This document shows positions 24,879 through 35,633 of a DNA stretch of 64,000 nucleotides, one piece after another. A model generated the notes under the pieces. The model did not search any database, had not been told where the DNA came from, and saw only the letters and a program-made list of their open reading frames with translations. How positions within the stretch are numbered: position 1 is the stretch's first letter; each line of letters starts with the position of its first letter. Made by a program: the position numbers and the translations under genes. Origin of the DNA: an uncultured bacterium (GTDB taxonomy: Bacteria; Pseudomonadota; Gammaproteobacteria; Burkholderiales; Burkholderiaceae_C); contig CAWDIT010000013.1 of assembly GCA_963802435.1 (NCBI GenBank), forward strand, positions 111,113 through 175,112. The letters run 5' to 3'.

Positions 24879-25772
24879 CTAGCCCTTGCGACGGCGTCCG
24901 AAGCTCGGGGGCAGCCAGGGCAGCGCCAGCAGCAAAGCGGTGCCGGCGACGACGAGCGCCCACACCTGACCCAGCGGCCAGACATAGAACAGCGGCATCA
25001 GCGCGAGGTAGAACCAGTCGAATTGCAGCGTGCCGGCGGCCACCGCCATGTCGGCCGCGCCGCCCTGGCTCAGCGCCGGCGCCACAAGCGACAGCGCGAG
25101 CAGCGTCGCCAGCAGGCCCGCCATGATCGGCCGCGGCGGGTTCGTGCGCGCCTTGGGCACGCGCTGCACGTGCACCCACATCAGCAGCAGCACGACGAGC
25201 GGAATGCCGATGTGCATGAACGCCAACAGCGAGAAGAAGCGGTCGTTCACGCTGCTCGCGTAGATGAAGTTGCGCATCAGTGCGCCGCCGAAAATCGGCA
25301 ACCGGTCGAGCCATTCGAAGCTGGCGGTGATGACGAACTGCGCCATCCTGTCCCACGGCAGCATGTAGCCGTTGATGCCCGACACGTAGACCAGCCAGAT
25401 CAGCGCCACGCCGGTCAGCCAGGAGAACGAGCGGAAGCCCCGCAGCCGGTCGAATGCGAAGTGGCGCAGCATGTGCAGCAGCATCGTGAACGCCATCGCA
25501 TCCGACGCATAGCGGTGCAGGCTGCGCAGGATGCCGCCGGCCCACCACTGACCGTGCGTCAGCGCCTCGACCGATGCATACGCGTCGCTGACGCCGGTCT
25601 CGAAGAACGCGTACAGGTACAGACCGCTGGCGGCGACGACCCAGAACAGGAAGAAGCTGATCGCGCCGAGCTGGTACAGCGGGTTCAGGCGGTCGCCGAA
25701 GGCCGCGTTGAACGGCGCCTCGACACGGATGAACAGCCATTGCAGCCAGCCCTGCAGGCGCTTGATGATCAT
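24879..25772 (-). CDS. diheme cytochrome b (cytochrome b N-terminal-domain-like)
   Basis: ATG at 25772 overlaps the upstream stop (ATGA). Two His pairs spaced 14 residues apart (SLHRY..LLHML and FMHIG..WVHVQ), as in the bc1/b6 heme ligands. It is a paralogue of the N-terminal half of 27707..29266. Confidence 0.8.
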   Translation of the reverse strand: MIIKRLQGWLQWLFIRVEAPFNAAFGDRLNPLYQLGAISFFLFWVVAASGLYLYAFFETGVSDAYASVEALTHGQWWAGGILRSLHRYASDAMAFTMLLHMLRHFAFDRLRGFRSFSWLTGVALIWLVYVSGINGYMLPWDRMAQFVITASFEWLDRLPIFGGALMRNFIYASSVNDRFFSLLAFMHIGIPLVVLLLMWVHVQRVPKARTNPPRPIMAGLLATLLALSLVAPALSQGGAADMAVAAGTLQFDWFYLALMPLFYVWPLGQVWALVVAGTALLLALPWLPPSFGRRRKG

Positions 25773-27196
25773 GCCGGGTCCGGGCGCGCAGCCGGCTGCC
25801 GCATCGCCTTCACGACGACGACGACGAACAGCAGTCCGCCGACGATCGCGATCAGGCCACCGAGTCCCATCAACCCCATGCCGGCCACCTCGCCCGGGCT
25901 GCGCAGCACCTGCTCGGCGCCGGCCACCTTGCGCTGCACGCCGTAGCCGCCCGACCACACCAGGCCGACGATGTGCAGCAACTGCCCGCTGCCATAGAGC
26001 CAGGGCTGCAGCGTCGCCGAGCGCGCGTTCGGCGCGGCGTAGCCGAGCTGCGGCAGCAGGTGGTAGACGAGGCCCATCAGTGCCAGCGTCACGCCGACAA
26101 TGCAGCCGTGGTAGTGCGCCGGTATGCGTACGTTGCTCCCGCTGATGAAGACGCCGATGAGTCCGCCGGCCGCAAAGAGCAGCACCGACGACACCAGCGC
26201 CGCGCGCAGGGGCCGCGCCGTGACGTCCGGCGACGGAGCGCCGGCGAGCGCGAGCACGACCGCCAGGCCGGTCGGCAGGATCGCGACGCCGCCGCCGAGG
26301 CGCATCGCCCAGGTGAGCAGGTTGCGGTGCTCCACCGACGCGACGTCGTAGGCCAGGTAGGCCCAGGGCGTGACGAACACGCTCGCCAGCGCGAGCGCGA
26401 ACATCAGCAGCGCGATGCGCGGCGACAGGCGCACCCGGGCCCCGCTGGCGCCGGCCAGCCACAGCCAGGCGACGAGCATCAGCAGCGTCCAGGTGAACTG
26501 CAGCGCATGGCCGCCGCCCCAGAACGCGATCTCGTAGTAGGCCTTGCCGGCGAGCGAACGCGGGACGACGGCGAGCGACCACGCGAACGCGAGCAGCGCG
26601 ACGGCCGTGGCGACGGCGCTGGCGTTCAGCCCGAAGCGCAGCGCGCCAGCGCCGTCGAACGAGACGCCGAGCCGGGGCGCGAGCCACAGGCCGCGCAGCA
26701 CGAGCAGCGCCGTGCCGATGCCGAACACGACCAGCCCGGCGAGGAACAGCGGCCCGTCGAGCACCGGGATGTAGTTGGCCATCACCGCCTCGCCGCGGTC
26801 GAGGAAGGGCGCCAGCGACATCATCAGCGCGCCTGCGCCGGCGAGGGCGAGCGCCACCCAGCCCGAGCGAATGCCGCGTGGCGCGCTGTTCAGGCTCCAG
26901 AGCAAGCCCGCGACGGCGACGAACCACACCAGCACCGAAAGGTCCACATGCACGACGAGCGCGACGCGAAAGAAGTCGGCGACCGGCAGCCACTGGTTGA
27001 CTCCTGGCGTGCGCGAGAGCACCAGTAGCACCGAGAACACGCCCGAGCCGACGAGCGACAGCACGGCGAGCCACAGCCAGCCGCGGGCGAGGGCACGGCG
27101 CGCGCCCGCGGGCACGGCGAGCGTGTAGTCGGTTGCGGCGGCGGACGCCAGCGCCGGCGCCTGTGAGGCGAGAGGAAGCACAGTGGTGGTGTTCAT
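25769..27196 (-). CDS. divergent heme-copper-oxidase subunit I-like membrane protein
   Basis: 475 aa. The HCO signature helices are recognisable: ALVVHVD, FWGGGHALQF, IPAHYHGCIVG..LVYHLLP. The helix VII HH pair reads VEHRN. ATGA overlaps at both ends. Confidence 0.75.
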   Translation of the reverse strand: MNTTTVLPLASQAPALASAAATDYTLAVPAGARRALARGWLWLAVLSLVGSGVFSVLLVLSRTPGVNQWLPVADFFRVALVVHVDLSVLVWFVAVAGLLWSLNSAPRGIRSGWVALALAGAGALMMSLAPFLDRGEAVMANYIPVLDGPLFLAGLVVFGIGTALLVLRGLWLAPRLGVSFDGAGALRFGLNASAVATAVALLAFAWSLAVVPRSLAGKAYYEIAFWGGGHALQFTWTLLMLVAWLWLAGASGARVRLSPRIALLMFALALASVFVTPWAYLAYDVASVEHRNLLTWAMRLGGGVAILPTGLAVVLALAGAPSPDVTARPLRAALVSSVLLFAAGGLIGVFISGSNVRIPAHYHGCIVGVTLALMGLVYHLLPQLGYAAPNARSATLQPWLYGSGQLLHIVGLVWSGGYGVQRKVAGAEQVLRSPGEVAGMGLMGLGGLIAIVGGLLFVVVVVKAMRQPAARPDPA

Positions 27197-27714
27197 TGGA
27201 GGGCGATGCCGCCTTTCTCGGCGTCGAAGTCGATGACCAGGATCTGCGCCGGTGCGAGACTCACGGTCTGCTCGCGCTGATAGTCGAAGCCACTACCGGC
27301 GGCGCTGTCCTTCAAGCGCACGGCGACGCGGTGTTCGCCGGCCGCCACGTTCAAGCGCTGGTAGACCGTCGAAGCGCCGTCCTTCGACAGCCCCGACGGC
27401 TCGGCGACGTGGCGAACCGCCGGCGCGCCGTCGATGTCGACCTCGACGCGAACCGGAGCGCGCTCGCGCTCGCACTTCATCGTCGCTCGCATGTTGGGCG
27501 GCAGCTTCGCGAGTTCTTCGGCGCCGAGCTGCCGGCATTCGGCGACACGCTTGCCGGCGTGCGTGAAGCTCAGCTTGATCAGCGCCTGGTCAGGTGCCAG
27601 GTGGTGGTACTCGGGCCAGTGGGAGAACACGCCGATGACGAGCGCGAACACGCCATAGAGCAGCAACTGGCCGGCCCAGGCGAGCGGTGTGGTTCGTGCC
27701 TTGGGTCTATCCAT
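27193..27714 (-). CDS. hypothetical membrane-anchored protein (173 aa)
   Basis: One N-terminal TM segment (LAWAGQLLLYGVFALVIGVF) and a soluble domain predicted to be beta-rich, with two Cys. It is translationally coupled to both neighbours. No family recognised. Confidence 0.6.
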   Translation of the reverse strand: MDRPKARTTPLAWAGQLLLYGVFALVIGVFSHWPEYHHLAPDQALIKLSFTHAGKRVAECRQLGAEELAKLPPNMRATMKCERERAPVRVEVDIDGAPAVRHVAEPSGLSKDGASTVYQRLNVAAGEHRVAVRLKDSAAGSGFDYQREQTVSLAPAQILVIDFDAEKGGIALQ

Positions 27715-29266
27715 GCTGCAGGCTCGTCTGCACGGGTCGCGGCAGCGGCGCGACGCGGCGACGCAGCGCGTCCAGCGCCGCGGCGACGTCGGTCTCGTCG
27801 CCGGCGTCTGCCCACGTCACTTCGATGCGCTCGCGCGGCACCGAGGCACGCAGTTGCGGCTCGCGCTCGCCGAGCAGGCGCTGCTGCGTCCACCGCGCGC
27901 CGAGGCGAAACTCGCAGCCGCCCTCACGGCAGCCTGTCACCAGCACGCCCGCGGCGCCGCCGCGCAGCGCGTACTCGACGAACGAGGGCGGCAGCATGCC
28001 AGTGCAGATCAGGCTCAGGCTCGTCACGTCGGCGGCTTCCAGCGCAGCGACGCGCGCCCCGCGGTCGCAGCCGATGACGACGATCCGACTGTCGCCCTGC
28101 AGTGCGGCGAGCTGGCGTTCCATCTTCTGGCGCAGGCTGTTCAGCGGCATCTGCGGCATGTCGATGCCGGTGGCGAGTTCGGCCGCGCCGCGAAACGGCG
28201 TCGCCGAGGGACACGAGCCGACGCAGATGCCGCAACTCGAACAGAGGTCGGCGTCGACCTGCGCGAGCTGCCTGGCGATTCTTCCGTTCGGGTGCGGCAG
28301 CATCGTGATCGCCGCATACGGGCAGTCGTCGAAGCAACGCCGGCAGCCGTTGCAGTTGTCAGGGTCGACCCGGGCCACTGCGGGCGCCGCAGGTCGTGGC
28401 AGCCAGGGCAACGCGAACAGCAGCAGCAGCGTCGCGCCGACCAGCAGCCACAGCGCGCCGGCCGAGCTGGCGTACATCAGCGGGTGGACGAACAGCAGCC
28501 ACCAGTCGAGCGCGACGGTCCGAGGCGCGCTGGCGAGATCCGCCGCGCCCTGGTCTGCCACCGGCAGCGCCAGCGCCAGTGCGAGGAGCGCCAGCGTCAC
28601 GCCGGCGGCGAGCGTGCGCGGCGGGAACACCTCTGCGCGGCTGAGCCGCTGGATGTGGAACCACAGGCCGAACACCAGCAGCAGCGGCACGCCGAGGTGG
28701 ATGAACACGAACAGCGAGAACAGCCGGTCACCGACACTGGCAGGGCCGAGGAAGTTGCGCGTCAGCGGCGACGCGAAGAACGGCAGCGCGTCCAGCCACT
28801 CGGCGGTGGCGATGGCGGAGAACTGGCCGAGACGGTCCCAGTTCAGCCAGAAGCCGCCGATCGCGCTGACGAAGGCGAACAGCAGCAGCGGCACACCGGT
28901 GAGCCACGAGAAGCGGCGAAAGCCGTGGTAGCGGCCGAACAGCCATTCGCGCAGCAGGTGGGCCAGCATCAGGACGACGAAGGCATCGGCCGCGTAGCGG
29001 TGCAGGCTGCGCAGCCAGCCGCCCAGGTACCAGGGTTGCCGCGACAGCTCGGCGATCGAGCGGTAGGCGCCCGCGACCGAGGTGTCGAGCACCGCATAGA
29101 GCACGATGCCGCTCGCCGCCAACAGCCAGAAGCAGAGGAAGCCCAGCGCGCCCAGGTGGCGCAGCGGGTTCAGCGCGCTTCCGGACACCGCGTCTAGGCC
29201 GCGCTCGCCGCGCTGCCACAGGGCCAGCGCGACTTCGCGTGCCGCCGGTGTCGACTCCTTGGCCAT
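27707..29266 (-). CDS. fusion protein: cytochrome b domain, 2x[4Fe-4S] ferredoxin domain and MvhD/FlpD-like domain
   Basis: ATG at 29266. Cytochrome b His pairs (SLHRY..MLAHLL, FIHLG..WFHIQ). CNGCRRCFDDCP and CSSCGICVGSCP. C-terminal LICTGMLPPSFVEYALRGGAAGVLVTGCREGGCEF resembles methyl-viologen-reducing hydrogenase delta subunit. Confidence 0.75.
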   Translation of the reverse strand: MAKESTPAAREVALALWQRGERGLDAVSGSALNPLRHLGALGFLCFWLLAASGIVLYAVLDTSVAGAYRSIAELSRQPWYLGGWLRSLHRYAADAFVVLMLAHLLREWLFGRYHGFRRFSWLTGVPLLLFAFVSAIGGFWLNWDRLGQFSAIATAEWLDALPFFASPLTRNFLGPASVGDRLFSLFVFIHLGVPLLLVFGLWFHIQRLSRAEVFPPRTLAAGVTLALLALALALPVADQGAADLASAPRTVALDWWLLFVHPLMYASSAGALWLLVGATLLLLFALPWLPRPAAPAVARVDPDNCNGCRRCFDDCPYAAITMLPHPNGRIARQLAQVDADLCSSCGICVGSCPSATPFRGAAELATGIDMPQMPLNSLRQKMERQLAALQGDSRIVVIGCDRGARVAALEAADVTSLSLICTGMLPPSFVEYALRGGAAGVLVTGCREGGCEFRLGARWTQQRLLGEREPQLRASVPRERIEVTWADAGDETDVAAALDALRRRVAPLPRPVQTSLQHG

Positions 29267-29274
29267 CGTGATCG

Positions 29275-30162
29275 TCAATGCGCCGTGGGCACGGCCGGCG
29301 GTCGCGGCATCGACGCGGCCCGCTGCGCCCGGCGCGCGCGGCGCCGGTCTCGCCACTCGAGGGCGAAGAACCACAGCATCGCGAGCGCGAAGGTGATGCC
29401 GCCGGCGATCTCGATCGCCAGCGCGTAGCTGACGCGGTAGGTGCCGGTGGCAGGGTCGTAGACCGAGCACAGCAGGCGCACGCGTTCGACGAGTTCGGCC
29501 AGGCCCAGGCTCGCCGGCAGCGGCTGGTTGCGCAGCAGCAGGCGAAGCGGCTCGCCGAGCCGGTCGGCGCTGAAGTCGTCGCCGTAGACCTGGGCCGCGA
29601 GGCGACCCTCGGCGTCGACGATGCTGACCTGGAGCAGGTGGTCGAAACCGGCCTGGGTCGGCCGGTATTCGAAGCCGAAGTCGCGTGTCAGCGCAGCGAT
29701 GCTTGCCGCGCGCGGGCTGAGGAAGTCCCAGTTCGGCGCTGCGATCCGCTGCTGCAGCGCGAACGCCTTCATCGACTGCGGCGAATCGGCGGGCTGGTTG
29801 AAGCCGATGCTGACGACGTTGAACTGGCCCGCATCGAAGCTGCCGCGCATCGCCTGCAGCGCCTCGGCCAGCGCGCGCGTGCTCGTCGGGCAGACCTGGA
29901 AGCAGCCGGTGTAGATGAAGTTCACGAGCAAGGGCTTGCCGCGGTAGTCGGCCAGGCGCACCGGGCGCCCCTCGCGGTCGAGCAAGGTGAAATCGCCGAT
30001 CGTCCTGCCGATCGCCGCCTGGCTCGTGCGCAGCGCGGCGGAGGGGTCCAGCGCCGGCTGGAGGGCGGCTGTGTCCTCGGCGTGGGCCGGAGCGAGTATG
30101 GCCAAGGCAAGTGCGGCCAGCAGGCCGCGCAGCGTGGTGGCGAGCACGCCGGCAGCAGGCAT
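29275..30162 (-). CDS. SCO1/SenC copper chaperone with a C-terminal transmembrane extension
   Basis: ATG at 30162. Signal/anchor sequence, thioredoxin fold with CFQVCP (CxxxCP) and a distal His (GFDHLLQVSIVD), plus an extra C-terminal TM segment (IAGGITFALAMLWFFAL). Confidence 0.8.
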   Translation of the reverse strand: MPAAGVLATTLRGLLAALALAILAPAHAEDTAALQPALDPSAALRTSQAAIGRTIGDFTLLDREGRPVRLADYRGKPLLVNFIYTGCFQVCPTSTRALAEALQAMRGSFDAGQFNVVSIGFNQPADSPQSMKAFALQQRIAAPNWDFLSPRAASIAALTRDFGFEYRPTQAGFDHLLQVSIVDAEGRLAAQVYGDDFSADRLGEPLRLLLRNQPLPASLGLAELVERVRLLCSVYDPATGTYRVSYALAIEIAGGITFALAMLWFFALEWRDRRRARRAQRAASMPRPPAVPTAH

Positions 30163-30169
30163 CGCAGCC

Positions 30170-31066
30170 CTAGCGCAGCAGCGCGTCGACGCTCGCCGCG
30201 GCAAGAACCAGGCTGAGTTGGAGCAGCGACGCGAAGAACGAACCCATCGCCGTCTGGCGGCTGGGGTGGCTTGCGAGGGCATGGGCCTTGCGCAGGAAGA
30301 AGAGGCCACCGGCCAGCGCACCGGCCAGGTAGATCGGCCCGGCGCCGAAGAACATCGGCAGCAGCGATGCAGCGACCAGCACGGCCGTGCTCCAGAACAC
30401 GATGCGCGCGGCGCGCTCGGTTCCCACCACCACCGGCAACATGGGCACGCCGGCGGCGACGTAGTCGTCGCGGTTGGCGATCGCCAGGCTCCAGAAATGC
30501 GGCGGCGTCCACAGGAACAGCACCAGCGCCAGCAGCGCCGGCAGGCTGCCGAGCGCGGGATCCACCGCTGCGGCGCCGGCCAGCACGGCAAAGCTCCCAG
30601 CCAGGCCGCCGATGACGATGTTGAGCCAGGTCCGCCGCTTCAGCCACACCGTGTAGACGACGGCATAGAAGAACGCGCCGAGGAAGACGTAGAGCGCCAC
30701 CATCGCGTTCAGCGCCCACCAGGCCGACGCGACCGAGGTGGCCAGCAGCAGCCCGATCAGCGCCAACCATGCCGGCGTGTGCGGCAGGGCGCCGGTGACG
30801 AAGGCGCGCGTGCGCGTGCGCGCCATCAGGCGGTCGCTGTCGGCCTCGACGTACTGGTTGAACGCGCCTGCGCTCGCCGAGGAGACGAAGACCGACAGCG
30901 CGAGCACCAGCACCTGCGCCAGCCCGGGCCCCGGTCCGGGCGTGAACGCGAAGCCGACCAGCGCAGTGAGCATGATCATCAGGCCGATGCGCAGCTTGAA
31001 CAGCCCGAGCACGTCGCGGACCAGGCGCGCCGGAGTGCGAGTTGCGTGCGCGATGGAGGCGCTCAT
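30170..31066 (-). CDS. ctaB: protoheme IX farnesyltransferase (heme O synthase)
   Basis: ATG at 31066. UbiA-family motifs (NQYVEADSDRLMARTRTR, YTVWLKRRT, LWTPPHFWSLA). Confidence 0.88.
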   Translation of the reverse strand: MSASIAHATRTPARLVRDVLGLFKLRIGLMIMLTALVGFAFTPGPGPGLAQVLVLALSVFVSSASAGAFNQYVEADSDRLMARTRTRAFVTGALPHTPAWLALIGLLLATSVASAWWALNAMVALYVFLGAFFYAVVYTVWLKRRTWLNIVIGGLAGSFAVLAGAAAVDPALGSLPALLALVLFLWTPPHFWSLAIANRDDYVAAGVPMLPVVVGTERAARIVFWSTAVLVAASLLPMFFGAGPIYLAGALAGGLFFLRKAHALASHPSRQTAMGSFFASLLQLSLVLAAASVDALLR

Positions 31067-31241: not shown

Positions 31242-32942
31242 TCATGACAGGCCCCAGACCTGAGACAGGTACTTCCAGTTGATGAAGTAGTAGAGCACGA
31301 AGGCCGCCAGGAACACCATCGCCAGCGCGAAGGTGCCGGGGGCCGCGAAGCCGGCCGAGCCGTATCCTTGCACGGCAGCGCCGACGGGAGTCGGCGGGAT
31401 CGGCGTAAAGCGCGGACTGACGGCGCCGCTGTCGAGCCGCTTGCCCCACAGCAGCGAACCGACCGTGACGTAGATGTAGATCGCGCCGCCGGCGATCGCC
31501 GCGATGCCGGCAAGCCCGACCAGGCCCATCATCAGGTAGGCCGCGCCCGGCCACTCGTAGGCCATGGCCGCGCCGCTGAAGGCCATGTCCCAGTGGCGGC
31601 GCGAGACGCCCAGCGTGCCCGCGCCCATCATCACCAGGCAGAAGAAATACATCGACAGGCCGAACAGGTAGGGCTGCAGCTTCGCCAGGCCGGGGGCGAT
31701 CATCTCGCGCCGGAACAGCACCGGGATCAGGAAGTAGGTCAGCGCCATGAACGACAGCGTCGTGCCGACGACCACCGTGGCGTGGAAGTGACCGGGCACG
31801 TAGATCGTGTTGTGGATGATCATGTTGAGTTGCTCGGTGCCCATCATCACGCCCGAAATGCCGCCGAGGAAGCCGAAGCCGATCAGCGAGATGAACACGC
31901 CGGAGAACACCGGGTTGCCCCAGGGCGCCTTGCGCAGCCACTCGAACAGGCCCTTGTTGAAACCCTTCTTGCGCTGCGCGACCTCGATCGCCCCGGGAAT
32001 GGTCAGGCCGTGGATCATCGAGGCGAGCACCGCGAAGTACATGAAGTAGCTGGTGTTGACGACCTTCCACGCGGTGCTCACGCCGGGATCGGCCAGCAGG
32101 TGGTGCGCGCTGGCGAGCTGCAGGAACAGGATGTAGAGCAGGAAGGCCCCGCGGCTGACGCGCTCCGACATCGGCTTGGCGCCGAAGGCGATCGCCGCGA
32201 CCGCATACCAGATCGAGATGTGCGCCGCGACGTTGATCTGCTGCGACGAGTGGCCGAAGGCCCACCAGATCGTGCGGTAGACGAGCGCATCGACTTCCTT
32301 GACGACGCCGACCGACATCAGGAAGGTCGGGATCAGGATGATTGCGCCGGAGGCGATCGTGAACACGGCGATGATCGCGGCGGTGATCGCACCGAAGGTC
32401 ACCAGCGGCACCGACCCCTGGTAGGTCTTGTCGCGCCTGGCAATGACCAGCGTGCCGAAGAAGACGAAGCAGGCGACGAGCGCGCCGACGGCGAACAGGA
32501 TCAGCCCGAGGTAGAAGTGCGGCGCGGCCATCATCGGCACGTAGCTCGTCATCATCACGCTCGAGCTGCCCTGGAACACGGCGACGTTGTTGGTGACGGC
32601 ACCGATCAGCATCAACGCGAATGCGAGCCAGGCGATGTTGGGTGTGGCGATCCGGCAGCGCAGCAGCGTCGACGAGCAGAAGTAGAGCACCGCGACCTCG
32701 AAGAAGATGATCCAGAAGATCAGCATGTCGATGCCGTGCGCGGTGAGCACCTGGTAGAAGGTGTCGGCGGCGAGCCAGTGCACGGCCGGCCAGCGCGTCA
32801 GCACGACGCCGACGGCGAGGATGCCGCCGACGAGCAGGAACACCACCGCCACCACGGCGTTGGCGATCATCAGTTTCTCGGCCTGGCCTTCGAACTGAAG
32901 GCCCGAGCGAGGGCAAGTGCGGTACGTCACGGCGCTCGACAT
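31242..32942 (-). CDS. heme-copper oxidase subunit I, B-family-like, lacking the cross-link tyrosine
   Basis: 566 aa, collinear from memory with Thermus ba3 subunit I: LTAHG, WWAFGHSSQQ (ba3 GHPIVY), SAHHLLADPG, VPGHFHATV. SD GGGAGG precedes the ATG. Confidence 0.85.
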   Translation of the reverse strand: MSSAVTYRTCPRSGLQFEGQAEKLMIANAVVAVVFLLVGGILAVGVVLTRWPAVHWLAADTFYQVLTAHGIDMLIFWIIFFEVAVLYFCSSTLLRCRIATPNIAWLAFALMLIGAVTNNVAVFQGSSSVMMTSYVPMMAAPHFYLGLILFAVGALVACFVFFGTLVIARRDKTYQGSVPLVTFGAITAAIIAVFTIASGAIILIPTFLMSVGVVKEVDALVYRTIWWAFGHSSQQINVAAHISIWYAVAAIAFGAKPMSERVSRGAFLLYILFLQLASAHHLLADPGVSTAWKVVNTSYFMYFAVLASMIHGLTIPGAIEVAQRKKGFNKGLFEWLRKAPWGNPVFSGVFISLIGFGFLGGISGVMMGTEQLNMIIHNTIYVPGHFHATVVVGTTLSFMALTYFLIPVLFRREMIAPGLAKLQPYLFGLSMYFFCLVMMGAGTLGVSRRHWDMAFSGAAMAYEWPGAAYLMMGLVGLAGIAAIAGGAIYIYVTVGSLLWGKRLDSGAVSPRFTPIPPTPVGAAVQGYGSAGFAAPGTFALAMVFLAAFVLYYFINWKYLSQVWGLS

Positions 32943-32952
32943 TTCGGCCTCC

Positions 32953-33492
32953 CTATTTCACGTACATGCGGCCGACCATCGTGTGATGGTTGATGCCGCA
33001 GTACTCGTTGCACACCACCGAGAATTGCCCCGTCTGGTTCGGAGTGACGTTCACCACGTGCTCGAAGCCGGGAACGACCTGGATGTTGATGTTGGTCGGC
33101 TGCAGCGAGAAGCCGTGGTTGTAGTCCATCGATGTCAGGTGCAGCCGGTAGGTCTTGTCCTTCTCGAGCTCGATGATCGGCCACCAGCTCCACAGGCGCG
33201 CGATCAGGTACACGTCGCTGCCCGCCGGTGGGTGCACCACCGGGATCTTCTGGTCGGTCTCGGTGCGCACGGTGTACTTGTCGACCATCGCCTGCGCCTT
33301 GGCGGCGAACAACTCGGGCGTCGTGCGGTAGGTCTCGGTCGACAGGTTCTGCTTGCCCCAGATGTGCCAGCCGACCATCATGAAGAACATCACCATGCAC
33401 CAGACGAAGGCGATGGCGATCCACGTGCCTTCGACACGGTCCAGCGGGTGCTTCCACCACAGTCGTTCGGCGGGGGGCAGGATGGCGCTCAT
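32953..33492 (-). CDS. heme-copper oxidase subunit II (cupredoxin, CuA site present)
   Basis: One TM helix and a cupredoxin domain. The CuA ligand pattern is H (MDYNHGF) plus CNEYCGINHHTM (C-x3-C-x3-H-x2-M). Confidence 0.82.
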   Translation of the reverse strand: MSAILPPAERLWWKHPLDRVEGTWIAIAFVWCMVMFFMMVGWHIWGKQNLSTETYRTTPELFAAKAQAMVDKYTVRTETDQKIPVVHPPAGSDVYLIARLWSWWPIIELEKDKTYRLHLTSMDYNHGFSLQPTNINIQVVPGFEHVVNVTPNQTGQFSVVCNEYCGINHHTMVGRMYVK

Positions 33493-33535: not shown

Positions 33536-33691
33536 TCACCTGGCCAGCGGCACGGTCAGAATGTCGATCACGCCCCAGAGGGTGTAGACCAACATCGGCA
33601 CCATCACGCCGAGGAACAGCAGCAGGAACGGGTTGTCCAGCAGTTGCTGCATCCAGGGGATGGATTCGTCGTCGTTTTCGGTCGCGTGCAT
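33536..33691 (-). CDS. small single-TM protein (51 aa) leading the oxidase operon
   Basis: AAGGAG lies 6 nt upstream of the ATG at 33691. There is a hydrophobic helix (FLLLFLGVMVPMLVYTLWGVI). It sits 43 nt upstream of subunit II. Confidence 0.5.
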   Translation of the reverse strand: MHATENDDESIPWMQQLLDNPFLLLFLGVMVPMLVYTLWGVIDILTVPLAR

Positions 33692-33881
33692 CGGGTCTCC
33701 TTCTTGCCGCGATGAAGGGCGCGGCAGGTGGTCGAAATTCTGCGGCGCTGGGCCGTGCAGAAAATTGAACCAAGATAAGAATGCGCGAGGTCGGTCCTGC
33801 TCGTGGTCGGCATGCGCATGCGCCGATCGATCAGCGATCCCCCCGATGTACCTCGGCCCCTGTCTGTCGCACAGTCGCCGC

Positions 33882-34871
33882 ATGGCCAACATGACAACGA
33901 CGCCTCCCGCGCCGGAAAGCGATCCCGCGCGACGCCTGGCATTCCTGCGACGCCTGGCTCTGCTGTGCGCGATCCTGGTGCTCGCGATCACCAGCCTGAG
34001 CGCGTTCATCCGCCTGTCGAAGGCCGGTCTCTCGTGTACCGATGGACCGCACTGTTACGGCCAGAACCTGCGCCAGCTCCAGCAGGGTCTTGCGGCGACG
34101 GCGGGCGAGGACGCGGGCACGGCCGCAGCGCGGCTGGCGCATCGCGTGGTGGCGAGCGCCGCGCTGCTGCTGGTGATCACGATGGTCGTCGTCTGCCTGA
34201 CGGCTCGCCCGCCGATGTGGCCCGAAAGCCGCGCCGCGCTCGCGCTTCTCGCGCTGGCCTTGTTTCTCGCCGTGCTGGGCCGATGGTCGGGCAACGCGCG
34301 CGTGCCGGCCGTGGCGATCGGCAACCTGCTCGGTGGCTTTGCGATGCTGGCGTTGTGCTGGCGGTTGGCGCGCGGGGGCTCCGTGCCCGGCACGCCATCG
34401 CTGCGCGCATGGGCCGGGCTCGGCGTGGTCCTGCTCGTGGTGCAGGTGACACTCGGAGGCTTGTTGAGCGCGTCCTACGCTGCGATGAGCTGCGGCGGCC
34501 TCGCCGAATGCCTCGCCGCGTCGGCGAACGTTCCGTGGAACGCCCTCGATCCCTGGCGCGAACCCGTGCTGGCGCTCACCCCGCCGCTCAACCCTTCGGG
34601 TGCGCTGGCGCAGACAGTGCATCGGCTGTCGGGGCTTGCCGTCGCGCTGGTCGTGGGGCCGCTGGGCATCGCCGCGCTGCGCAACGGTCGACGCGGTCAC
34701 GGCGCGCTGTTGCTGGTGTTGCTGGCTGCGGAGCTAGTGCTGGGCTTGCGGATGACCGGCGGCGTGTCGCTTGCACTGGCGCTGGCGCTGGCGCATAACG
34801 TGGTCGCCGCGTTGCTGCTGGCCACGGTGTTCGATCTGACGCGAGGGTCTGGCGCGGCGCGGTTGCCCTGA
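33882..34871 (+). CDS. ctaA: heme A synthase (COX15/CtaA family)
   Basis: Polytopic protein with Cys pairs (SCTDGPHC, SCGGLAEC) and conserved His residues (AHRVV, VHRLSG, AHNVV). The start is ATG 33882 or 33891. Confidence 0.75.
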   Translation: MANMTTTPPAPESDPARRLAFLRRLALLCAILVLAITSLSAFIRLSKAGLSCTDGPHCYGQNLRQLQQGLAATAGEDAGTAAARLAHRVVASAALLLVITMVVVCLTARPPMWPESRAALALLALALFLAVLGRWSGNARVPAVAIGNLLGGFAMLALCWRLARGGSVPGTPSLRAWAGLGVVLLVVQVTLGGLLSASYAAMSCGGLAECLAASANVPWNALDPWREPVLALTPPLNPSGALAQTVHRLSGLAVALVVGPLGIAALRNGRRGHGALLLVLLAAELVLGLRMTGGVSLALALALAHNVVAALLLATVFDLTRGSGAARLP

Positions 34872-34928: not shown

Positions 34929-35633
34929 ATGGAGCCGCGCCCGTTCGACGTGCCGAAATACCTCTCGGTACTGCCGCTGTTCAACGACCTCACGCCGGTC
35001 GAACTGAAGCAACTGGCCGAAGGGTGCATGCTGCGCCGCCTGGTGCGCGGCGACATGGTCTTCCGCATGGGCGAACCCTGCAACGAGTTCCACGTGGTCG
35101 TGACGGGGCAGGTCAAGTTGTTCGTGCTGTCGCCGGCGGGGCAGGAGAAGGTGCTGGAACTGGTCGGCCCTGGCCAGAGCTTCGGCGAGGCGATCATGTT
35201 CACCGACCGCCCCTACATGCTGGGCGCGCAGTCGCTTTCGGACATGCTGCTGCTCACGGTCTCGAAGCAGGCGGTGCTGGCCGAGATCGAGCGCGACCAC
35301 CGCTTCGCACTGCGCATGCTCGCCGGGCTGTCGCGCCGCATGCACGGGCTGGTGCACGACGTCGAGGCCTATTCGCTGCACTCAGGATTGCAGCGCGTGA
35401 TCGGCTTCCTGCTGCGCGACCAGGCGCTCGATGACTGCGCGCCGACCGAGGTGCGCACGGTGTCGCTGCCGGTCAGCAAGGCGACGATCGCGTCGCGTCT
35501 GTCGCTCTCGCCCGAGTACTTCTCTCGCGTGCTGCACGAACTCGAGGCCAGCGGCCTGATCGAAATCGACCGCCGCGACATCCGGATCCTCGACGCCCAG
35601 CGGCTTTCCCAGTTCGGCCTCACGGCTGCCTGA
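34929..35633 (+). CDS. Crp/Fnr-family transcriptional regulator without an Fnr-type Cys cluster (Dnr/NnrR-like)
   Basis: cNMP-binding-like beta-barrel (GQSFGE). C-terminal HTH with the E--SR recognition motif (SPEYFSRVL). No N-terminal CxxC..C motif. Confidence 0.85.
   Translation: MEPRPFDVPKYLSVLPLFNDLTPVELKQLAEGCMLRRLVRGDMVFRMGEPCNEFHVVVTGQVKLFVLSPAGQEKVLELVGPGQSFGEAIMFTDRPYMLGAQSLSDMLLLTVSKQAVLAEIERDHRFALRMLAGLSRRMHGLVHDVEAYSLHSGLQRVIGFLLRDQALDDCAPTEVRTVSLPVSKATIASRLSLSPEYFSRVLHELEASGLIEIDRRDIRILDAQRLSQFGLTAA

Follow-up and report, generated by a model that had tools for sequence, protein, structure and literature searches.

In the stretch of contig CAWDIT010000013.1 analysed here, 64,000 nucleotides from an uncultured member of the Burkholderiaceae_C (hereafter the window), the minus strand between positions 27707 and 29266 codes for a 519-residue protein in which a dihaem cytochrome b of the bc1/b6 type is fused to a ferredoxin domain with two [4Fe-4S] motifs and to a [2Fe-2S] domain like that of MvhD/FlpD. 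This gene, the target of our analyses, belongs to an operon for the nitric oxide reductase eNOR, and we consider it probable, with good confidence, that its product is a transmembrane electron-transfer module coupled to that enzyme.

The first-pass annotation of the window had described the tri-domain fusion and placed it at the right coordinates, but it named no strand. Read on the plus strand, this interval translates into nonsense, and that reading was dropped. On the minus strand, the open reading frame (ORF) is unbroken, from an ATG at 29266 to a stop codon at 27707-27709. The stop-to-stop frame runs on further 5' of this ATG; the start at 29266 is supported because the closest homologues are 519 residues long each and cover 100% of the query, and because the upstream SenC gene ends at 29275. 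A missed stop codon or a frameshift joining separate genes had been considered as a possible source of the fusion. This explanation is refuted and its probability is negligible, since the ORF is continuous, its length and architecture recur in more than 120 full-length homologues, and relatives with as little as 30% identity still show this architecture. The gene and the domain limits of its product are as follows.

27707..29266, minus strand: target cytochrome b–FeS gene, 519 residues; cytochrome b with six transmembrane helices and two haems b, ferredoxin domain with two [4Fe-4S] motifs, MvhD/FlpD-like [2Fe-2S] domain
Residues 29-207: cytochrome b
Residues 217-288: helices E and F with the Qo-like 'LDWW'
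Residues 297-355: Fer4
Residues 413-506: FlpD

Pfam searches and alignments with PDB sequences bear out the three domains, and all the motifs quoted in the first-pass annotation are present. Cytochrome_B (PF00033) matches residues 29-207 with E=5e-18 (66 bits, for a gathering score of 27.2). Residues 35-207 align with cytochrome b6 in the PDB sequence search (E=4e-19), and H89, H103, H190 and H204 of the target fall on the four haem ligands of b6, in helices B and D. These residues are part of the motifs SLHRY...AHLL and FIHLG...FHIQ, both with the spacing H-x13-H. The NarI-like families, of the QmoC, DsrM or HdrE type, gave no match among the 17 Pfam hits of the target at E<=0.1. The Cys residue of haem cn (CxGG) is absent as well: 'FYCLGG' of b6 aligns with 'LRHLGA' of the target, and this column has no conserved Cys in an alignment of 40 family members. 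Two Fer4 domains score above gathering on residues 297-355, where several Fer4 models pass their thresholds, and their motifs are CNGCRRCFDDCP and CSSCGICVGSCP. FlpD (PF02662) matches residues 413-506 (E=8e-13; 48.9 bits, gathering score 22.3), over profile positions 27-120 of 123 only; the match of a relative, P0151, spans positions 2-120. Residues 411-516 align with MvhD/VhuD in the PDB sequence search (E=6e-10), and the MvhD region harbours VIGCDRGA, then LICTGMLPPSFVEYALRGGAAGVLVTGCREGGCEF. In the NCBIfam search, residues 295-506 resemble the C-terminal ferredoxin and MvhD part of HdrA2 (NF040770, E=5e-23), and residues 223-294 resemble ExtQ, a subunit-IV-like membrane piece, with a score far below the cut-off. 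The target stays under the NCBIfam equivalog cut-offs of VhuD (NF045873; 23 vs 215), HdrA2 (NF040770; 81 vs 1100) and ExtP (NF040969; 92 vs 290).

The AlphaFold2 model of the whole target is of low confidence (mean pLDDT 61.5) and was therefore used for counting helices only, with no fold search. It shows six long helices (residues 38-59, 80-109, 125-141, 175-208, 217-233 and 269-288), and its MvhD domain is confident. The membrane part thus consists of helices A-F only, short of the seven to eight helices (A-G/H) of cytochrome b plus subunit IV. Homology to b6 and subunit IV puts the end of helix F on the n-side and hence the Fe-S domains in the cytoplasm, in line with what the first-pass annotation had expected of the topology. 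In the ef loop, the counterpart of the PEWY motif is an xDW[F/W] variant: it reads 'LDWW' here and 'DWFY' in the family consensus, with D254-W255 at the PEWY position. PDWY-type variants of the PEWY motif are known.

The 40 aligned sequences are 27-55% identical, and their invariant columns are essentially cofactor ligands: the four His residues listed above, the eight ferredoxin Cys residues (C305, C308, C311 and C315; C342, C345, C348 and C352) and, in the MvhD domain, C400, C421 and C446. C451 and D254 of the DW motif are kept in at least 90% of the sequences. The DW core is also present in the paralogue types described below, in which cytochrome b is fused to an FNR-type module, to a cytochrome P450 reductase-like (CPR) module or to a haem-copper-oxidase-like (HCO-like) domain. 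C400 aligns with the second Cys of the CCxxC motif of MvhD, which is cut to a single Cys in the target. The first-pass annotation had taken this reduction as a sign that the [2Fe-2S] site may be altered. However, the third Cys of the MvhD motif, lost in the target, has been described as an additional, non-ligand Cys between the cluster and the flavin of HdrA (PMC13580544). Thus, a four-Cys [2Fe-2S] site made of C400, C421, C446 and C451 is probably retained and probably not crippled.

Analyses of the third-codon-position GC content (GC3) and Pfam searches delineated one minus-strand operon around the target, here listed from its head, with the two divergent genes at the end.

33536..33691, minus strand: 51-residue ORF with a single transmembrane segment (MHATENDDESIPWMQQLLDNPFLLLFLGVMVPMLVYTLWGVIDILTVPLAR), at the operon head, directly upstream of eNOR subunit II
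32953..33492, minus strand: eNOR subunit II, with an intact CuA motif, CNEYCGINHHTM
31242..32942, minus strand: eNOR subunit I, of the haem-copper superfamily; 'GHSSQQ', with Gln for the cross-linked Tyr, and an intact HH pair
30170..31066, minus strand: CtaB/UbiA haem O synthase
29275..30162, minus strand: SCO1/SenC copper chaperone with an extra C-terminal transmembrane helix, immediately 5' of the target in the window and in most related loci
27193..27714, minus strand: p173, 173 residues, with an N-terminal transmembrane helix and a predicted periplasmic eight-strand beta-sandwich; its start overlaps the target stop by 8 nt
25769..27196, minus strand: divergent HCO-like protein, 475 residues; its start overlaps the p173 stop
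24879..25772, minus strand: paralogous cytochrome b, 297 residues, six transmembrane helices only
33882..34871, plus strand: CtaA haem A synthase, divergently transcribed
34929..35633, plus strand: Crp/Fnr-family regulator, adjoining ctaA

Subunit I of the window reads WWAFGHSSQQ, with the HH pair in 'AHHLL', and its activity as eNOR is predicted from this signature. The signature, namely a Gln replacing the cross-linked Tyr, three metal-site His residues and a CuA-containing subunit II, has been published (PMC8756737, PMC11214002). The 51-residue ORF is kept in 101 related loci, as detected by tblastn, and small annotated genes are found at the same spot in L161 and L162; it may code for a small eNOR subunit. 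Neither a Rieske protein nor a cytochrome c is found among the assigned genes of the window operon or among the recurrent neighbours in 160 related loci. The SCO1/SenC protein of the window, like those of cluster C1 in loci L081-L160, has a conserved C-terminal extension, …C-x-VYDP-x-TG-x-Y…, that ends in the transmembrane helix, so its thioredoxin-like domain would be membrane-anchored at both ends. No FNR box (TTGAT-N4-ATCAA, with up to three mismatches) occurs in the divergent ctaA/eNOR promoter region, 33692-33881; FNR control of the corresponding 'ba3' operon of Accumulibacter has been reported in published work.

Analyses of related loci revealed how tightly the target gene is associated with eNOR. 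Eighty loci came from a scan of GTDB species genomes built on 11 closer sequences (the best 80 of at least 472 genomes), and 80 more came from metagenomes, collected in a scan with a distant alignment of the long form. The hosts of the 80 genome loci are Burkholderiales and Rhodocyclales plus one member of the Lysobacterales; they include Ca. Accumulibacter, Piscinibacter caeni, Simplicispira lacusdiani, Ramlibacter monticola and Noviherbaspirillum. Relatives of the distant metagenome group are labelled Deltaproteobacteria, Nitrospirota and Nitrospinota. Where the flanking DNA was long enough, eNOR subunit I was found in the same orientation as the target and no more than 5 kb upstream of it at 57/62 of the genome loci and 37/40 of the metagenome ones, or 94/102 together. 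The H..Q and HH residues are present in all 112 adjacent subunit I genes, and the CuA motif CxExCx3Hx2M in all 106 subunit II genes. The p173 sequence is fused to the target or encoded by the next gene in 70/74 genome loci and 66/68 metagenome loci, and a SCO1/SenC-like gene whose product has a C-terminal transmembrane helix lies directly upstream in most loci (56/80 of the distant ones). Genes for cd1 nitrite reductase, hemerythrin and Crp/Fnr regulators recur nearby. The target gene is thus a near-obligate part of eNOR operons in Betaproteobacteria, Deltaproteobacteria, Nitrospirota and Nitrospinota. A long-form homologue of 695 residues was also found among housekeeping genes in a metagenome-assembled genome (MAG) of Deltaproteobacteria (L163, JACRNJ010000041.1, 9001-11088).

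The family is large, and the first-pass description of its architecture as unusual does not hold in the sense of rare. The 120 best matches to the target among 5.8 billion proteins are full-length, with all three domains in one chain, at 63-100% identity; the bulk of them stem from MAGs of Burkholderiales, and their database name is "hydrogenase iron-sulfur subunit". Among representatives at 50% identity, an exhaustive search without a profile yielded 487 clusters (E<=1e-30), and the GTDB scan detected the family in at least 472 species-representative genomes. The same architecture is found in 10/10 relatives tested at 30-45% identity. Fusions to cytochrome c were sought among 150 representatives, in which CxxCH strings occur only within Fe-S motifs. 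The automatic names in databases are misleading: members of the family are called 'hydrogenase iron-sulfur subunit' or 'coenzyme F420-reducing hydrogenase delta subunit', and the adjacent eNOR is commonly labelled as a ba3 or cytochrome c oxidase, as with the 'ba3' oxidase of Accumulibacter in PMC6446978.

The protein encoded next to the target, p173, belongs to no Pfam or NCBIfam family and has no sequence match in the PDB; its 2387 relatives are annotated as 'hypothetical'. In many lineages, the p173 domain is fused to the C-terminus of target homologues of ~700 residues, to which it adds a seventh transmembrane helix. These fusions indicate that p173 belongs to the same complex as the target. 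Its AlphaFold2 model (pLDDT 83) has one transmembrane helix and an eight-strand beta-sandwich, for which Foldseek gave no match below E=0.01 and none to cupredoxins or Rieske proteins. The conserved features are a Cys pair (83-86%) and a CxRER motif. We considered p173 as a copper or Rieske-like redox domain, with H52, C60, M75, C81 and H128 as candidate ligands and SenC encoded nearby. This idea was rejected: the His and Cys residues are kept in only 76-86% of the sequences, the Met is unconserved and the sandwich is generic. We therefore treat p173 as a structural periplasmic subunit whose predicted structure offers no recognisable redox cofactor site.

The 475-residue HCO-like protein is related to Pfam COX1 with E=3e-13 only, and searches of the PDB and NCBIfam gave no match. 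In 85 sequences, the three haem His residues and one CuB His, in helix VI, are invariant. The HH pair of the CuB site is replaced by (A/I/V)-Tyr, and Phe is found at the cross-link position. These proteins may form an undescribed family of the superfamily. No subunit II gene of its own accompanies this family, which implies that it needs an intramembrane electron donor. It is encoded in 63/66 genome (betaproteobacterial) loci but only 16/48 of the distant metagenome loci, and we dropped the idea that it is the primary partner of the target in general. A fusion of cytochrome b with an HCO-like domain 63% identical to that of the window forms a cluster with a single representative (P0241).

About 70 related genomes code for a second cytochrome b of ~640 residues, composed of cytochrome b, Fer2, FAD_binding_6 and NAD_binding_1 domains, with a reductase part similar to BenC/MmoC. 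Such an FNR-type module is present in 67/80 genome loci and 3/79 metagenome loci, and four Accumulibacter loci (L053, L063, L065 and L067) harbour both the target type and the FNR-fused paralogue. In the window, the DNA resembles that of the closest genome precisely up to the stop codon of the paralogue, after helix F, and no further; SirB follows 29 nt later. The window organism thus has only the 297-residue membrane part, and the reductase part has been lost or was never acquired. In another cluster with a single representative (P0176), cytochrome b is fused to flavodoxin, FAD_binding_1 and NAD_binding_1 domains, as in cytochrome P450 reductase. In Nitrospirota and Nitrospinota, translational coupling links the target type to a NuoF-like gene. 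It is composed of Complex1_51K, SLBB and NADH_4Fe-4S domains with intact FMN, NADH and N3 motifs, and it overlaps the end of a long cytochrome b-FeS-MvhD-p173 gene; a shorter, second cytochrome b-FeS-MvhD gene and a convergent rhodanese gene come next. It was found at the following places and in two other loci, L084 and L085; with four loci in all, it was not retained as a general partner.

L161, 11108-12421: NuoF-like gene
L162, 7772-9154: NuoF-like gene

What such a module might do for eNOR is best discussed in terms of the direction of electron flow. We tentatively favour, at somewhat less than even chances, the view that the target is the Rieske-less cytochrome b subunit of an eNOR accessory module acting as an electron-input hub. 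The module would adjoin eNOR in the membrane. A cytoplasmic reductant would pass electrons to the [2Fe-2S] cluster, then to the two [4Fe-4S] clusters, haem bH and haem bL; NAD(P)H, by way of flavoproteins that differ between lineages, or else ferredoxin would serve as this reductant. Quinol would be oxidized at the Qo-like site, and its electrons would join at bL. Both streams would then reach eNOR and, in Betaproteobacteria, the CuB-less HCO-like protein. A net flow through the Fe-S branch in this outward direction, from the cytoplasm to the haems and on to eNOR, is plausible, if not quite probable. We lean towards the outward hub because its route is downhill, dispenses with a substitute for the Rieske protein and explains both the HCO-like partner devoid of subunit II and the cytochrome b-HCO fusion. 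Transfer from NAD(P)H and the Fe-S clusters through the b haems to haem a or CuA and NO would run downhill without calling for a Rieske-type acceptor. A tie to NAD(P)H at the cytoplasmic end is supported by the cytochrome b-FNR paralogue, the coupled NuoF-like gene and the cytochrome P450 reductase-like fusion, and the feeding of a haem-copper-type protein by cytochrome b is supported by the cytochrome b-HCO fusion. Homologues in Ferrigenium are present as proteins under denitrifying, Fe(II)-oxidizing growth (bioRxiv 10.64898/2026.01.22.701106).

Several observations weigh against an outward hub, or against the tie to eNOR on which it depends. The tie is suggested by gene linkage rather than by physical association. 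All loci were retrieved through the target, and the counts give target loci with eNOR, not eNOR operons with the target. Within 9 kb of the deltaproteobacterial long-form homologue at L163 there are no genes for eNOR, SenC or the HCO-like protein, and the linkage is therefore not absolute. The CuA motif is kept in every subunit II gene, so eNOR can accept electrons from periplasmic carriers. The enzyme of R. marinus was purified with two subunits and is active with tetramethyl-p-phenylenediamine (TMPD)/ascorbate, showing that the module is not required for catalysis. As p173 has no recognisable cofactor site, there is no obvious periplasmic relay. A conserved Qo-like element in a bc-type layout, with the quinol site on the p-side and the haems towards the n-side, would be expected of an inward, low-potential branch. 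The published proposals for relatives, in Ferrigenium, Accumulibacter and anammox bacteria, all favour transfer from quinol to NAD(P)+. Lastly, most lineages lack an NAD(P)H module nearby (the FNR part occurs in 3/79 metagenome loci, the NuoF-like gene in four loci). FNR- and NuoF-type modules are, moreover, reversible.

The inward direction corresponds to a quinone-based bifurcation, which we consider possible though rather unlikely. Quinol would be oxidized at the Qo-like site, with one electron going to the high-potential eNOR (CuA or haem a, then NO) and the other through bL, bH, the two [4Fe-4S] clusters and the [2Fe-2S] cluster to NAD(P)+, by way of an FNR- or NuoF-type partner, or to ferredoxin, so that NO reduction would pay for reductant. 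The D-W core of the PEWY counterpart, which is among the best-kept positions and is present in the FNR-, CPR- and HCO-fused paralogues too, speaks in its favour, and to our knowledge bc-type cytochromes b are otherwise known from Q-cycle enzymes only (Dibrova 2017). Strict linkage to an eNOR with intact CuA suits the need for a high-potential acceptor on the p-side, NAD(P)-binding modules have been attached in at least two independent ways, and several lithoautotrophs among the hosts depend on reverse electron flow (Ferrigenium, Nitrospirota and Nitrospinota MAGs). The overall reaction is estimated to be exergonic, at ~+1.1 V for QH2 to NO vs ~-0.4 V for QH2 to NAD+, and bifurcation has already been proposed for Ferrigenium, for Accumulibacter and for the Rieske/cytochrome b complexes of anammox bacteria. 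Nevertheless, no Rieske protein or other one-electron acceptor has been identified for the Qo site, p173 is cofactor-less, and the second electron would be driven against the membrane potential before rising to the Fe-S and NAD potentials. An NAD(P)-linked partner is missing from the neighbourhood in most lineages, the hosts include many ordinary heterotrophs of the Burkholderiales, and the window's own paralogue lacks its reductase part. A specific version, in which eNOR itself, through its CuA domain or haem a, is the high-potential Qo acceptor of a Rieske-less bifurcating device and NO reduction drives the second quinol electron across the membrane, by way of the b haems and the Fe-S clusters, to yield NAD(P)H or reduced ferredoxin, is less likely again, at about one of four chances in our judgement. 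If true, it would represent a previously undemonstrated coupling of denitrification to the generation of reductant.

The genetic setting also brings to mind a role in biogenesis, with the module giving electrons for the maturation of eNOR, either for O2-dependent haem A/As synthesis by CtaA or for periplasmic Cu(II)/thiol reduction in the SenC-dependent assembly of CuA. The target belongs to the 'assembly' half of the operon, where it comes immediately after ctaB and senC, with ctaA divergent, and the adjacency of SenC is the best-kept neighbour relation in the distant loci. The ferredoxin-FAD-NAD(P)H module of the paralogue mirrors the pair of ferredoxin and ferredoxin reductase that serves eukaryotic haem A synthase: Cox15 relies on a [2Fe-2S] ferredoxin together with an NADPH reductase. 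NOX/FRE-type metalloreductases share the overall logic. We nevertheless judge this role to be improbable, given that CtaA is encoded next to the module in only 5/80 and CtaB in 21/80 distant loci, that one-electron chains of haems and Fe-S clusters are not known to reduce the disulfides of Sco or CuA, and that a chaperone role would hardly seem to call for so large and highly conserved a dihaem protein with a Qo-like motif. In Ferrigenium, besides, the homologues are abundant enough to be detected in the proteome. Far less probable still is a role of the Hdr/Mvh type, with the target as the membrane anchor of a hydrogenase or of an enzyme like heterodisulfide reductase. It is suggested by the FlpD/MvhD domain, by the module similar to the C-terminal part of HdrA2 and by the automatic name of the family, and the first-pass annotation had been framed in these terms. 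That framing proved misleading: neither the window operon nor more than 160 related loci harbour hydrogenase, HdrA/B/C or Qmo genes, the conserved setting is that of eNOR, the NCBIfam scores for HdrA2 and VhuD fall far short of their cut-offs, and the Cys of MvhD that faces HdrA is lost in the target.

The target has parallels among known systems. NarGHI, HdrED, DsrMK and QmoC are characterized systems in which dihaem cytochromes b of the NarI/HdrE type have cytoplasmic Fe-S partners; QmoC is itself a fusion of cytochrome b with an Fe-S part, and QmoB carries an MvhD-like domain. The target follows the same logic as NarGHI, HdrED, DsrMK and QmoABC, with a dihaem cytochrome b in the membrane, a quinol site and a cytoplasmic Fe-S chain. 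However, their cytochromes b are unrelated to bc1/b6, and their partners are enzymes of the nitrate, heterodisulfide and sulfite pathways. The statement of the first-pass annotation that no characterized enzyme tethers a transmembrane cytochrome b to such Fe-S modules is therefore right for the bc type, for which our literature searches found no biochemical characterization of a fusion to such modules, but it overlooked the analogues of the NarI/HdrE type and a preprint that had noted a cytochrome b-FeS protein. The first-pass annotation had also named a common architecture with an already assigned function as a refutation of its reading, and this holds by half: the architecture is common, but no function has been assigned to it.

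SoxC of Sulfolobus, a bc-type cytochrome b homologue that is encoded and works with a haem-copper enzyme of the B-family type (the quinol oxidase SoxABCD) and no Rieske protein, is similar to the target in these respects, and its feeding of SoxB is a precedent for a cytochrome b that would feed eNOR. Weak NCBIfam matches link the target to cyt_b_SoxC and eNOR subunits I and II to SoxB and SoxA, all far below the family cut-offs. Unlike the target, SoxC lacks an Fe-S/MvhD extension in the cytoplasm and a partner similar to p173, and SoxABCD reduces O2, not NO. The MvhD/HdrA2 C-terminal module of methanogens shares with the target a homologous unit of two [4Fe-4S] clusters and MvhD, in which four of the MvhD Cys residues are kept, but the target has no HdrA flavoprotein core, no MvhAG or Hdr genes nearby and a single Cys for CCxxC, and it is tied to a membrane cytochrome b. 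NOX/FRE proteins and MsrQ, in which electrons go from NAD(P)H and flavin in the cytoplasm through two stacked b haems to an acceptor at or close to the outer face, resemble the cytochrome b-Fd-FNR paralogue and, by extension, perhaps the target; their membrane fold is unrelated, and the likeness would be one of mechanism only. Rieske/cytochrome b complexes of anammox bacteria with NAD(P)-oxidoreductase subunits have been reported (Kartal 2013 and de Almeida 2016, cited in PMC5600118; PMC12954380). They combine a bc-type cytochrome b with cytoplasmic FeS/flavin modules for NAD(P), for which N-oxide-driven bifurcation to NAD(P)H is hypothesized, whereas they differ from the target family in having Rieske proteins, multihaem cytochromes c and modules in separate subunits.

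The closest published description is in a preprint of May 2026 (bioRxiv 10.64898/2026.01.22.701106) on Ferrigenium straubiae, whose eNOR operon codes for a cytochrome b-[Fe-S] and a cytochrome b-[Fe-S]-FAD-NADH protein. Both were found in the proteome, and a supercomplex that couples NO reduction to NAD+ reduction was proposed. This operon is like that of the window, with eNOR II, eNOR I, haem O synthase, sco1 and two cytochrome b fusion proteins. The preprint calls the genes unusual and possible markers of Ferrigenium, whereas we find them to be near-universal beside eNOR at target loci of four phyla-level groups. Large cytochrome b proteins named 'subfamily H' have been described with "functions yet to be established" (Dibrova 2017, PMC5600118), and an 'unusual cytochrome b/b6' was noted in Ca. 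Accumulibacter (Garcia Martin 2006, as cited in PMC9041414). Both are probably of the target kind. For bc-type cytochromes b, ties to cytoplasmic redox modules are known from hypotheses only, on anammox complexes, subfamily H and Accumulibacter. The Ferrigenium, Accumulibacter and subfamily H reports hold no biochemistry and leave the MvhD domain, p173 and the HCO-like protein unmentioned. The target is thus a member of a kind that had been noticed, through an automatically named family, the Ferrigenium preprint and subfamily H, and that has no established function. Our analyses add its breadth and near-obligate linkage to eNOR, the MvhD identity of its third domain with a conserved four-Cys site, p173 as a partner revealed by 'Rosetta-stone' fusions, and the connections to NuoF-like and HCO-like proteins. 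They also correct the name "hydrogenase iron-sulfur subunit", which sits on thousands of database entries.

The demonstration that eNOR reduces nitric oxide dates from as late as 2024 and was made with artificial donors alone. The enzyme is encoded by bacteria with a bearing on N2O emission and wastewater treatment, among them Accumulibacter, many Burkholderiales and Fe(II)-oxidizing denitrifiers. The target module represents a testable candidate for the wiring of eNOR to the quinone and NAD(P)H pools, and for a possible formation of reductant driven by NO reduction.

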